Shown piece after piece: positions 36,001-39,000 of a stretch of 64,000 nt of DNA (the first letter of the stretch is position 1; each line of letters starts with the position of its first letter). The DNA comes from Limnothrix sp. BL-A-16. GTDB lineage: Bacteria > Cyanobacteriota > Cyanobacteriia > CACIAM-69d. Made by a program: the position numbers. Where the stretch lies: assembly GCA_041937175.2 (NCBI GenBank), contig CP166615.1, positions 1,376,001-1,440,000 of the forward strand, in the 5' to 3' direction.

Positions 36001-39000
36001 CACGGGTGCTGATCGTTTGCCTGTTCAGCAAACCTGGATTAATCCTGACTGCGGGCTAAAAACTCGCCAGTGGGAAGAAGTGCTTCCTGCGCTCAAAAAT
36101 ATGGTGCTCGCCACGCAAAAGCTACGGGAAGAAATTCATGATTCATCCCACTAGCCCAAGGTTGTCAAACCTGACTGTTGGCTTACCCAACGTTATTCAG
36201 GATAACTTCCTGTACATCGGCTATGTTGCATGGCAAGGCCACCTCCAATATGGACGAGGGATGGTGGCTTGTACAGTGCAAGAAACGGTGACTAATCGCT
36301 TGGGTGGGATTGAGGATGTAACAGCAAGGTCTGTGCAATATATTCCGTTCGACCTTGCTGCTTTATACCTTGACCTTTGCCTTGTGCCTGTTAGTTCAAT
36401 CGATCGCCTGTTGAGCGTGATCAAAACCTATGCACCCGATCGAGAGATTTTGATTTTGGTCAAGCAAGGTCAAGATGTGGAGATTGACTGGCTGCAAAAC
36501 CTAGCAATTTCACCTTCTGAGTGTTATCGCCAAGTGTGCGATCGCTGGTCAGAGTTTAATCTGGCTTCTTAACTCAACAGAGGCTGGATTAACACCAAGG
36601 ATTGCAGTGTTGATGATTGCTTCGGCGGATCAGCTCGATGCATGAGCTAGTTCATTGTGTTCTCTTTCATTTATGAATAAGCAGTCGATTTTGGCATTGG
36701 CAGACCATCCCACTGTGGCAGTGACAGGGCGAGTGGATCAGTGGCTCCATGATCCTGCGGGGCGGCTGCCGGTGAGCTGTACGGTTCTGGCTGTGCAGGA
36801 TCGAATGGATGGCCCGGATGGCATTGAAGATAGTTGGCATTTCACGAGCCAGGCCCTCCGCTATGGGGCTGGTGTTGCGATCAACTTGTCAGCGCTTCGG
36901 CCTGCGGGTACGGTTTCGCCGAATGTCACAGCCTCTGGCCCCACATCTTTTGCCCGCATTTACAGCGTCTTGAATGAGACGATCCGCCGGGGCGGTCGAT
37001 TTAAAAACGGGGCGGTCAATTTGCATTTGGATAGTCATCACCCTGATGCTCAGGACTTTATTAAGATTCCAATCGATCGCTTGCCTTGGGCTAAACGCAC
37101 GCTAATTGTTCATGATGATTTGCTGCAATTGCCATACCTGAATGACATCATGGAGCAAATGCAATCCGGCAGTTTGTGGCTCTCCAAAGCTCGGACGGAT
37201 GCTGCGGGAAATGTGCTGTATGGCAATGTTTGCAATGAAATTTTTTTGCCGTCACGGGGAACCTGTTTGCTGCAACATGTCAACTTGGGAATGTGTTGCA
37301 TTGAGGATATTCCTGATGCTTTCGAGCATGGCATGAAGATGCTCTGTTCAATTCATCCCATCACTGGTGTGGGTGAGAGTAGCCTTTATCGATCGCCCGA
37401 ACATGATCGACAGGTGGGGTTGGGGGTCATTGGCTTGGCATCGCTTTTGGCGATCGAAAGCGTTACCTATCGCGAGTTGGTGGAAGCTTGGGAATTGCGC
37501 CTGCGGCCGATCGACCACGCAAGAAGTCAAACCAAGGCCGATCGATTAGTGAACAGCCTAATTGAAGGGTTCGATCGCGCGGCGGCTTGGGCCCGAAAAG
37601 AGGGAATGGAGCGCAGTCTAACGATCGCGCCAACGGCTTCCTGTGCTTATCGCTATGTTGATCGCGATGGCTACACAACAACACCGGAAATTAGCCCCCC
37701 GATCGCCTGTGAAGTCGATCGCTACAGTGGTGTTTTTGGGATCCAAACCTATGATCATCATCCCCGAGTAGAAACTGCTTCAGAAGTGGGATATGAGGAC
37801 TATTTCCGGCTGGCCAATTGTTGGCAGCAAAGCATGGAAGCGACGGGACAGGCTCACTCGATATCCTTCAACATTTGGGATACCCAGGTGATTGATCAAG
37901 ATTTCCTAGAAAAATGGATGCGATCGGCACTTTGGACAACCTACTATCGATTGCCAGTCCGTCAACAATCCGCCCTTGATAAAACCATCATTCAACAGAA
38001 ATCGTTAACTTGCGATCTGTCGGCTGATGAATGTGTTGCTTGTGCTGAATAGGAAGCATTTCTGATGGACTTTTACACTGAACAATTGGCTCGCAAGCGC
38101 TCCTGGACACCCACTTGTGGCGAAAGGATGAACACAATGCCGGGCGCGGATCAAGTTTTGGGGCGGGCCCTGGCGCTGCGTGTTCTTGAATTAGAAGTGG
38201 CGGAATGGCTAGACGACGCTTTGGGCAAAACGACACTTCCAGCAACAGCAGTTGAATGTCTGCGCTCTAATATTCTTGATGAAGAACGGCACGACAAAGT
38301 GTTAGGAATGGCCGCTCAAATCTATCAACTGACGACCGATAGGGACGAAGCAGAAGCCAAACAAATTCATCAGCAATGGATTCATCATCCTGACCATCCA
38401 TTGGTCAAGGCCTTCGTGTTGGAAAATTCCGTCTTCTTTGTGATTCTGCCCTTGCTGCGGATGTTTGGTGGCGTGGGTTTGGGAATCATCTCAGGCGATA
38501 TTTCCGGTGATGAATCTGTCCATGCGGCCGTCCATCGCCAAGCAGCGCATGATCTAGGATTGACCTACAGCAGTTCCTTAGATCGTCTTAGAAGAGATAC
38601 CGTTGGTTGGCTGGTGGATGGCTTGCGAATCCCGGAAGCGGGACGTTCTGGGAAACCTCAACGTTGGTTGGATGCGTCAGATAGTTTGCTCTATCAAGGG
38701 GCTTCTGATTTGGTGGAAACCCGTCGCGCAATTCAGCCTGCATTTTTTGAAATTGCTAACGATGCCCTACCGAGCTATCGGTAACTGGTCAGATAATGGC
38801 TTGAGTTCTATCACTGACAATCATAATTTTCAGCATTTTCGACCATGGGTTTTGATCTGAAGTTGTGACGAGTTGGAGTTTTTGGATGGCGACATCTTCT
38901 TCTGACTGGCAGGAGTCCTTTGTTGCCACAAATTTAATTGCTCTGGGATATAACGCTTGGAGTAATTATTTGGCGGGAGGACGAGGTGCAGTGATTTGTA

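Follow-up and report, generated by a model that had tools for sequence, protein, structure and literature searches.

CcmS-like proteins behind cyanobacterial cobalamin riboswitches and their past association with metE

In Limnothrix sp. BL-A-16, two small proteins, g01115 and g01118, are encoded next to the genes for methionine synthase MetE and a class-Ø ribonucleotide reductase (RNR) in an operon that is headed by a cobalamin riboswitch. This raises the question of what such proteins contribute when B12 is scarce, and whether they serve MetE in particular, as had been proposed in the initial annotation. The window analysed is a stretch of 64,000 nt (contig CP166615.1, positions 1,376,001 to 1,440,000); it was compared with homologous loci from other cyanobacteria.

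The operon of strain BL-A-16

The operon consists, in this order, of the riboswitch, metE, g01115, the genes for RNR alpha and beta, and g01118 (Table 1); in the window, the two small genes have metE, the RNR genes, and proS as neighbours. The riboswitch is the sole Rfam match within the window and one of three cobalamin riboswitches in the genome, the remaining two of which precede cbiMNQ and DUF1636-hupE. The genome also carries metH (1535 bits). The view that g01115 and g01118 are real ORFs and paralogues which belong to no Pfam family proved correct: they share 27% sequence identity (E 4e-14), and no Pfam or NCBIfam family could be assigned to either. A weak Pfam match of g01115 to DUF3256 (E 0.014) is under the cut-off and was rejected. 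For g01118, an in-frame GTG at position 38865 is an alternative start, which would result in a protein of 162 aa.

Table 1. Features of the cobalamin riboswitch operon (position 1 is the first nucleotide of the window).
Feature	Position	Strand	Evidence
Cobalamin riboswitch aptamer, operon head	33113..33256	+	RF00174, 61.5 bits, E 8.7e-13
metE, B12-independent methionine synthase, 749 aa	33905..36154	+	TIGR01371, 940 bits; NF003556, 985 bits; PF01717 and PF08267
3′ end of metE, translational-coupling junction (SD and g01115 start)	36113..36154	+	17-nt overlap, 36138-36154
g01115, A-type family member, 144 aa, ATG start	36138..36572	+	ORF; AF2 model; predicted CcmS fold
Class-Ø RNR alpha, 465 aa	36655..38052	+	7urg_A, E 2.1e-128; PF02867, partial, 82 bits
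Putative class-Ø RNR beta, ferritin-like, 239 aa	38065..38784	+	Position and C-terminus
g01118, B-type family member, 155 aa from ATG	38886..39353	+	27% identity to g01115; B clade

RNR alpha matches the S-CBP4 class-Ø RNR (7urg_A), and the protein has a CxxC at its C-terminus, as has been described for class-Ø RNR (PMC9531940). The protein encoded directly downstream ends in a Tyr plus one residue, a C-terminal end described in the same source for class-Ø ferritins. Its assignment as RNR beta is based on position and C-terminus only because it has no Pfam, NCBIfam, or PDB sequence match. The position behind a class-Ø RNR, which had been noted for g01118, is not general: RNR genes are found between A- and B-type copies only in the window and in a congener (G085), A directly followed by B being the usual order. 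A genome's only RNR must be expressed at any B12 level. Because g01118 is 5.6 kb distant from the riboswitch, downstream of what is apparently the sole, and thus always needed, RNR of the genome, riboswitch control of this copy is uncertain.

A scan of positions 32950-39600 returned two promoter-like sites (5.4 expected by chance) and nine terminator-like sites (7.0 expected by chance), and neither count is informative. From one metatranscriptome, 11 contig pieces cover metE, g01115, and RNR, with the caveat that such contigs, although from an RNA library, are no proof of transcription. Three raw-read RNA runs with the same species label contributed no reads on the window, which counts as no test.

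A riboswitch-linked family and the loss of metE

Homologues were gathered by genome and HMM searches. The family was found in 115 of the 401 Cyanobacteriia genomes that were sampled (about 29%), which is a wider extent than the 14 of 121 genomes reported initially, and it forms 313 clusters at 50% identity. "Hypothetical protein" is the label in every named family record seen. Literature searches (tlr1091/tlr1090, CcmS-like proteins, cyanobacterial cobalamin riboswitch together with metE, DUF1636) found no paper on the family; a study of Thermosynechococcus co-cultures mentions tlr1090 (metE) and has nothing on tlr1091 (PMC5340862).

Two types, A and B, are distinguished. g01118 is placed in the B clade (SH-aLRT 99, 36 rows) and has a dN/dS of 0.05 compared to G085. 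g01115 is an atypical, faster-evolving A member, with a long branch, loss of the N-terminal W-Q motif, and a dN/dS of 0.36 in the same comparison. Fifteen columns are at least 90% conserved across 53 sequences. Within the set of Cys and His residues, only the first Cys (C45, in 120 of 122 sequences) is conserved family-wide; C129 is found in 85 of 86 A and 26 of 36 B sequences. The HHxxxH patch is specific to the B subfamily (H80, H81, and H86 in 32, 34, and 36 of 36 sequences), which also carries an 8-residue His-rich insertion. The conserved His patch of the initial annotation is not a family-wide trait, and the His-rich stretch on which metal delivery to MetE had been based exists in B only.

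A wider "AW.GY..GRG" superfamily of unnamed cyanobacterial proteins, also without a Pfam family, is picked up by the family profile (E 1e-9 to 1e-15) and has motifs in common with it. Some of its members are two-domain fusions (P0087, P0095, P0111, P0139, P0145), their tandem domains being a parallel to the A-B tandem genes. Unlike the family, the superfamily members that were read lack Cys45.

A total of 100 loci were fetched, one of which (L126 from G400, E 2.4e-4) was dropped as tblastn detected no family gene; the remaining 99 are from 91 other genomes. Rfam cmscan detected a riboswitch of the cobalamin clan on the same strand upstream of the family gene in 39 of the 41 loci examined. A purpose-built covariance model (CM R1) found it in 91 of the 99, which reduces to 90 as the riboswitch of locus L036 was not confirmed by Rfam. 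For seven of the eight loci negative with CM R1, the contig ends within less than 2.4 kb upstream. A confirmed upstream riboswitch on the same strand is thus present in 90 of the 92 loci with enough upstream DNA, representing 54 genera, and a single one of the 99 is counted as being without riboswitch. The tie to the cobalamin riboswitch, as proposed initially, therefore stands. The co-operonic genes vary by locus: a SAM methyltransferase (35 loci), DUF1636 (26), metE (22), desaturases (16 and 15), CobW (9), and CbiM/N/Q (4/3/2), with HupE also sharing operons with the family. In several loci (e.g., L034, L068, L086, L101, L118) no gene other than the family gene was found behind the riboswitch. 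Pseudanabaena exemplifies a riboswitch followed by A alone, and Thermosynechococcus (tlr1091) and Limnospira (ARTHROv5_60604) the order riboswitch, metE, B. Where present, the family is the most constant gene of cyanobacterial cobalamin riboswitch operons. A gene with such a riboswitch has been reported for Anabaena to be upregulated about 100-fold under cobalt starvation (PMC10878165).

The statement that the family always follows metE did not survive this wider sampling. An intact metE lies between riboswitch and family gene in 22 of the 99 loci and a metE remnant in seven, with none in 62; contig ends truncate seven further loci (an eighth metE remnant being present in one), and the last is the one without riboswitch. 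The 62 riboswitch loci without metE span 37 genera, and in 24 of them the riboswitch is less than 300 nt from the gene. At the level of genomes (metE absence being called at E<=1e-20), 30 of the 401 have both the family and metE, 85 only the family, 16 only metE, and 270 neither. The family thus occurs in 30 of the 46 genomes with metE versus 85 of the 355 without. In genus g7, 23 of 29 genomes have it, and none of the 29 has metE. When 15 of the 16 metE-only genomes were re-searched with the family profile, 14 had no match and one had a marginal match over 36 positions; the family-less genomes include three from genus g36, relatives of which carry metE-B. A complex prediction for MetE (19-row alignment) with g01115 scored 0.00 in two runs without controls and speaks neither for nor against an interaction.

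The link to metE is nevertheless old. In the window, the first 17 nt of g01115 coincide with the end of metE, including its stop codon, and the SD sits within the last metE codons; elsewhere, 22 loci show a −17 nt overlap between the family gene and the gene upstream, and five a −11 nt overlap. The approximately 25 nt before the ATG include the G-rich GGGAGGAA, which corresponds to the metE codons for LREE, and this region is kept even where a methyltransferase, a desaturase, DUF1636, or nothing at all is found upstream. Five of the eight metE remnants are open in-frame ORFs, each of which begins at the metE ATG and ends at the metE stop; all five junctions differ. The A tree requires a minimum of 12 transitions between linkage to metE and its absence. 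The ancestral position of the family is directly behind metE, with translational coupling. Loss or replacement of metE then occurred many times, while the small gene was retained together with its ribosome-binding site and the riboswitch. The remnants are a clean natural example of selection that preserves translational coupling after the death of the upstream gene.

Family members in genomes without metE are under purifying selection, with dN/dS values of 0.04-0.6 overall and 0.04-0.15 within g7; in seven further genera, of which six or more are without metE, the values are 0.1-0.6. In Limnospira, the B-type gene ARTHROv5_60604, located 62 nt after metE, is transcribed and co-induced with metE: it is upregulated 7.4-fold where metE is upregulated 7.3-fold, and 2.1-fold where metE is upregulated 2.5-fold (means calculated here from three replicates each, Table S1 of PMC8400943). 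The inducing condition was gamma irradiation, not a shift in B12 or cobalt.

Similarity to the carboxysome chaperone CcmS

The CcmS fold proposed initially was confirmed at the level of predicted structures. The AF2 model of g01115 (pLDDT 84.4, pTM 0.78) has four strands and six helices of at least four residues. CcmS is the only clear structural match of this model, both by Foldseek (9iur_A, E 3.8e-6, TM 0.53/0.58; 8zlh_A, E 2.6e-5; next match 5.9e-2) and by VIA-wide (8zlh_A, Z 9.0 over 116 residues; 9iv7_A, Z 8.4; next 5.0). A search of the ESM Atlas returned only eukaryotic tethering-complex clusters (0.90-0.93) without structure record, which were taken as noise. At the sequence level, a single-sequence PDB search gave no match at E<=10. 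A 53-row family profile ranked CcmS first among 177,635 PDB sequences, but with E values of only 0.06 and 1.3; in the profile alignment, LG.AW.Y and YDP motifs are common to the family and CcmS, and a Cys occupies the position of C129 in the Slr1911 CcmS, too.

CcmS (Slr1911/All1292; PDB 8zlh, 9iur, 9iv7), a cyanobacterial protein of ca 140 aa with a fold of five helices and four strands, thus resembles the family in fold and size, with a sequence identity of just 14%-19%. The genomic contexts differ: the family is found in cobalamin riboswitch operons and not, as CcmS, in a ccm cluster, and no carboxysome protein is among the recurrent neighbour clusters of the 99 loci. CcmS is described as a beta-carboxysome assembly chaperone; it forms homodimers, to which CcmK1 binds through its C-terminal tail of 12 residues (PMC11635287). 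Binding of the CcmK1 tail by the family is not expected.

Possible roles under B12 and cobalt starvation

On balance, we lean towards the family being a protein of the B12/cobalt starvation regulon, probably a small CcmS-like dimeric adaptor. Its near-constant position behind a cobalamin riboswitch suggests that it is a core member of this regulon and is produced at times of B12 scarcity. For cyanobacteria that synthesise B12, such scarcity usually means a shortage of cobalt. The small dimer, a homodimer where A or B occurs alone and perhaps an A-B dimer in the presence of both, would bind another protein and help in its assembly or continued function. We infer this adaptor mechanism from the likeness in fold, at the low identity given above. 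The near-invariant Cys residues (two in A; one plus the HHxxxH helix in B) may bind a metal or have a redox role. MetE would not be the sole client, and gene order points to no client as the co-operonic genes vary among loci. The family is absent from 286 of the 401 genomes; most cyanobacteria can therefore cope with B12 or cobalt limitation without it.

The B12-independent isozymes, MetE and class I or class Ø RNR, have their regulatory logic and operons in common with the family. Unlike these, the family has neither an enzyme fold nor a catalytic motif, and it is kept in genomes from which the isozymes are missing. Should it prove to be an adaptor specific to starvation or a protein that handles metal, the B12/cobalt-sparing response of major primary producers would include a new functional class, and the CcmS fold would gain a second biology.

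A more specific proposal, which we put forward tentatively, is that the cyanobacterial cobalamin riboswitch controls, besides enzymes and transporters, a protein-protein effector: a tail-binding dimer of the CcmS type would be made only under B12/cobalt starvation and act on a client encoded elsewhere (e.g., an apo-B12 enzyme or a metalloenzyme that needs assembly). In this scheme, CcmS itself would represent a single specialised lineage within a broad superfamily of cyanobacterial adaptors. An effector of this kind would explain why the gene is so constant in the operons and has outlived metE.

It is rather unlikely that the proteins primarily handle metal during cobalt starvation, as a Co/Zn buffer or metallochaperone that uses the Cys pair (A) or the Cys and the HHxxxH helix (B). 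The conservation of C45, of C129 in A, and of the three His residues in B is consistent with such a role, as are the CobW, DUF1636, and CbiM/N/Q genes in family operons, the control of cbiMNQ and hupE by the other riboswitches of the BL-A-16 genome, and the many metalloenzymes among the co-operonic enzymes (MetE, RNR beta, desaturases). COG0523 metallochaperones of the CobW type share riboswitch operons with the family in the nine loci mentioned (representative TIGR02475, 505 bits), and the His-rich stretch of B is a further likeness; the family, however, has no GTPase domain and an unrelated fold. It resembles no known metallochaperone, its sole structural relative binds a peptide, and C129 may be structural given the equivalent Cys in Slr1911.

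A dedicated MetE helper, an assembly, adaptor, or zinc-delivery factor needed for the B12-independent methionine synthase alone, is improbable, and as an exclusive role it is largely refuted. The ancestral metE-A(-B) order with its 17-nt overlap is typical of stoichiometric partners, the family is enriched in genomes with metE, and the Limnospira member follows metE in its induction. A historical tie to metE is supported. Yet 85 of the 115 family genomes, including all those from g7, are devoid of metE, purifying selection and riboswitch control persist in its absence, nearly all of the re-searched metE-only genomes (among them those of g36) do without the family, and the His patch is restricted to B.

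We also see little reason to expect a function in corrinoid economy, by which the protein would bind B12 or a B12-dependent enzyme (MetH) and prioritise or protect the scarce cofactor. Expression only at low B12, as implied by the riboswitch, is compatible with this, as is retention of the family in genomes that rely on MetH alone; metH is also present in the BL-A-16 genome, and the conserved Cys could ligate cobalt. Against this, the family shows no known corrinoid-binding motif or fold, metH is not linked by gene order, and the 286 genomes without the family presumably also have MetH. Finally, a non-functional passenger ORF, kept merely through its location inside riboswitch operons, would fit the varying partners and the lack of a known function, but it is highly implausible given the dN/dS values, the fifteen conserved columns, the loci with the family gene as the only one found behind the riboswitch, and the five in-frame metE remnants that preserve the coupling to the family gene.

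The riboswitch operon of the window

The cobalamin riboswitch is followed by five genes on the same strand and then by proS (see the Table). The initial annotation had described g01115 and g01118 as paralogous ORFs in a riboswitch-metE operon, and this is correct: they share 27% sequence identity (E 4e-14), and both fall outside the Pfam and NCBIfam families. They represent two types of one protein family, referred to as A (g01115) and B (g01118). The spacer between aptamer and metE start (33257-33904) has ca 650 nt versus roughly 210-540 nt in other metE loci (e.g., L064); its extra length is not accounted for by any ORF or terminator.

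Table. Features of the window and of other fetched loci (prefix L).
Feature	Location	Strand	Remarks
1600-aa ORF	28230-33032		stops just 5' of the riboswitch
Cobalamin riboswitch aptamer	33113-33256	+	RF00174, 61.5 bits; sole Rfam match in 64 kb
metE	33905-36154	+	TIGR01371, 940 bits
g01115 (A type), 144 aa	36138-36572	+	ATG overlaps metE stop by 17 nt
Class-Ø minimal RNR alpha subunit, 465 aa	36655-38052	+	7urg_A (phage S-CBP4 class-Ø enzyme), E 2e-128
Candidate class-Ø RNR beta subunit, ferritin-like, 239 aa	38065-38784	+	ends in Tyr plus one residue
g01118 (B type)	38886-39353	+	family member
MLKYYL..SGKIP ORF	L061:9854-10099	+	directly 3' of B gene
MLKYYL..SGKIP ORF	L064:9467-9742	+	directly 3' of B gene
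MLKYYL..SGKIP ORF	L065:9835-10110	+	directly 3' of B gene
MLKYYL..SGKIP ORF	L085:2750-3016	-	directly 3' of B gene
U193, ca 195 aa	L033:2233-2814	-	unnamed membrane protein

The 239-aa ORF, which lacks any family match, is a candidate for the beta subunit because of its C-terminus, which corresponds to that given for class-Ø ferritin-like subunits in PMC9531940. The pair (36655-38784) is the only RNR found in this 100%-complete genome with PF02867, TIGR02504, NF005122, PF00268, and PF13597; the Synechococcus elongatus control genome was likewise negative for PF02867, so that the search may have overlooked a divergent cyanobacterial RNR. With an essential enzyme 3.4 kb downstream of a B12 off-switch, either an internal promoter or leaky control is implied.

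The initial annotation had placed g01118 after the RNR. This is not the usual arrangement, the prevailing order being riboswitch-[metE]-A-[B]-cargo. In the window and its congener G085, A and B are separated by the RNR genes; in genome G306 they are separated by a methyltransferase and a monooxygenase, and in G059 by a desaturase and a cyclopropane-fatty-acid (CFA) synthase. Given the usual A-[B] order and the varied inserts, g01118 does not generally follow an RNR; the RNR was inserted into an A-B pair. The congener carries three genes between A and RNR alpha which are missing in the window (a 94-aa ORF and genes for a 334-aa methyltransferase and a 405-aa FAD monooxygenase). Contigs from the metatranscriptome of a close relative part from the window sequence at precisely 36566 and 36670, consistent with an indel polymorphism of these three genes.

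Distribution of the family and its cobalamin riboswitch regulon

A six-frame search with g01115 detected the family in 115 of 401 Cyanobacteriia genomes (59 of 169 genera); g01115 is an atypical member, so these counts are minimum values. With the profile, 313 clusters were retrieved at E<=1e-3 from 1.84 billion representatives, some of them two-domain fusions which likewise lack a Pfam family. Among the records seen, all named ones were cyanobacterial and annotated as "hypothetical protein". Scanning 185,579 species genomes for a B-type pattern yielded 179 relatives, the best 80 of which belong to cyanobacteria or unnamed MAGs. Two are on plasmids (L145 and L212: Acaryochloris marina MBIC11017 pREB6 and a Calothrix sp. 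NIES-4105 plasmid), which suggests that the operon is mobile. In a tree of 122 sequences, B forms one clade (SH-aLRT 99, 36 rows) inside the diversity of A.

For 100 loci, the sequence from 9 kb before to 3 kb past each match was fetched; 22 of the 114 other genomes were left out (16 further genomes of genus g7, and 6 with only partial or weak matches). A family gene was present in 99 of these loci, which represent 91 genomes and 54 genera. Rfam cmscan, applied to 41 loci, revealed an upstream same-strand cobalamin-clan riboswitch in 39 (38 RF00174, 1 RF01689) and none in L036 and L103. A covariance model of our own, trained on 25 of these riboswitches and run over all 100 loci, had an upstream same-strand match in 91 of 99 family loci, or 90 without L036, where Rfam gave no confirmation. 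In seven further loci the contig end leaves less than 2.4 kb upstream; L103 is the sole locus with 9 kb of upstream sequence in which no riboswitch was found. The family is thus tied to the riboswitch in 90 of 92 assessable loci, as had been proposed, and is a near-obligate member of the cobalamin riboswitch regulon.

Clustering of 209 same-strand neighbours identified as partners SAM methyltransferases (35 loci), DUF1636 (26), metE (22), Delta9-type desaturases (16), FA_desaturase (15), the membrane protein U193 (11), CobW (9), CFA synthase (7), CbiM/N/Q (4/3/2), and a UbiH-like hydroxylase (2). U193, which belongs to no Pfam or NCBIfam family and is predicted to have 3-5 hydrophobic segments, is always encoded between riboswitch and A and is a candidate cobalt or corrinoid transporter. 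The window genome's two other cobalamin riboswitches drive cbiMNQ and DUF1636-hupE, and PMC10878165 gives a ca 100-fold response of an Anabaena cobalamin riboswitch to cobalt starvation; this regulon can therefore be read as a response to cobalt/B12 starvation.

Pairs of an oxygenase and a SAM methyltransferase recur in these operons (L041, L042, L062, L066, L067, L070, L073, L084, L087, L088, L091, L099, L110, L113, L128, L129, and others), namely FA_desaturase with Methyltransf_11, Delta9-type desaturase with CFA synthase, and methyltransferase with UbiH-like hydroxylase. Speculatively, they might be B12-independent stand-ins for B12-radical-SAM methylations.

Ancestral coupling to metE

According to the initial annotation, the family nearly always follows metE and is a dedicated MetE helper. 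Neither generalization is supported. An intact metE lies between riboswitch and family gene in 22 loci and a metE remnant in 7, while 62 loci (37 genera, 15 families) have no metE; there the riboswitch is 70-2924 nt upstream of the family gene (median 473; <=300 nt in 24 loci). In the same 401 genomes, metE (TIGR01371, E<=1e-20) occurs in 46: both are present in 30 genomes, only the family in 85, only metE in 16, and neither in 270. Of the 29 genomes of genus g7, 23 have the family and none has metE. When 15 of the 16 metE-only genomes (all except G274) were re-searched with the family profile, 14 had no match and one a marginal 36-position match away from metE. Dependence thus fails in both directions, which contradicts an exclusive MetE-helper role; a partial role alongside MetE is possible in genomes having MetE. 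A second metE clade (ca 1100 bits) occurs in G242, G067, G180, G161, and G349; in G180 (L103) it is on the opposite strand, 6 kb from the B gene, and the fetched 12.4 kb are devoid of a riboswitch.

Pairwise dN/dS values (NG86) of A genes within genera lacking metE are 0.04-0.15 in g7 and 0.09-0.61 in the other sampled genera; in the window's genus they are 0.36 for A and 0.05 for B.

In 22 loci, the start of A and the stop of the preceding gene overlap by 17 nt, and in 5 loci by 11 nt. The ca 25 nt 5' of the A start codon include a G-rich Shine-Dalgarno sequence which doubles as metE codons for LREE. This 25-nt stretch is kept behind a methyltransferase (L041, L050, L054, L057, L062, L067), a desaturase (L074), DUF1636 (L094), or no gene, and the ends of these foreign genes resemble the metE tail. 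Among eight loci with metE remnants, five (L036, L066, L072, L085, L102) still have a frame that is open between the start codon and the stop of metE, and the deletion junctions are all distinct (53/695, 54/697, 44/682, 84/628, 56/687). In L046 the frame is shifted, L047 contains a single stop, and L084 has decayed. On the tree, the A rows require 12 or more changes in linkage to metE. The family was ancestrally coupled to metE and has been kept, under constraint, where metE is absent. In the simplest reading, ribosomes would load at the riboswitch-controlled metE start and be handed on to A, and in-frame metE deletions would be kept because they preserve this coupling.

In Limnospira indica PCC 8005, the B-type gene ARTHROv5_60604, 62 nt after metE, tracks metE over 12 samples (PMC8400943, Table S1). 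By our means computed from that table, after irradiation it is up 7.4-fold (metE 7.3-fold) in strain P2 and 2.1-fold (metE 2.5-fold) in P6; the metE riboswitch RNA is likewise induced (PMC8400943, main text). A small ORF of 61-91 aa with the motif MLKYYL..SGKIP is conserved directly 3' of B in four loci, and the corresponding ORF of Limnospira, ARTHROv5_60605, is induced together with metE and B.

Predicted fold, conserved residues, and possible role

The proposed fold of CcmS, a beta-carboxysome assembly chaperone, was confirmed as a prediction. An AF2 model of g01115 from a 53-row alignment (pLDDT 84.4, pTM 0.78) matched CcmS in Foldseek (9iur_A, E 3.8e-6; 8zlh_A, 2.6e-5; following match 5.9e-2) and in VIA, all-against-all over 48,161 chains (8zlh_A, Z 9.0, rmsd 3.9, 116 aligned; 9iv7_A, Z 8.4; following match 5.0). 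CcmS also ranked first, weakly (E 0.06 and 1.3), when the family profile was compared with 177,635 PDB sequences, and both share the motifs LG.AW.Y and YDP. In our reading, the family and CcmS are distant paralogues. According to PMC11635287, CcmS is a homodimer, and it binds CcmK1 at a disordered C-terminal tail of 12 residues (Kd ca 35-40 uM). By analogy, the family protein may be a small dimer acting on another protein. Most genomes manage with A alone and some (e.g., in genus g36) with B alone, so that any A-B heterodimer would be optional.

C38 had been considered invariant, and H81, H86, and C130 nearly so. These are g01118 positions, reflecting a B-dominated alignment; the His patch is confined to the B type (H80 32/36, H81 34/36, H86 36/36; g01118 numbering). 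Family-wide, G41 is found in 122 of 122 sequences and C45 in 120, and W32, Y98, P100, E139, and F140 each exceed 90%. C45 is missing from the wider-superfamily members examined. C129 is present in 85 of 86 A and 26 of 36 B sequences, and the cysteines possibly have a metal or redox role.
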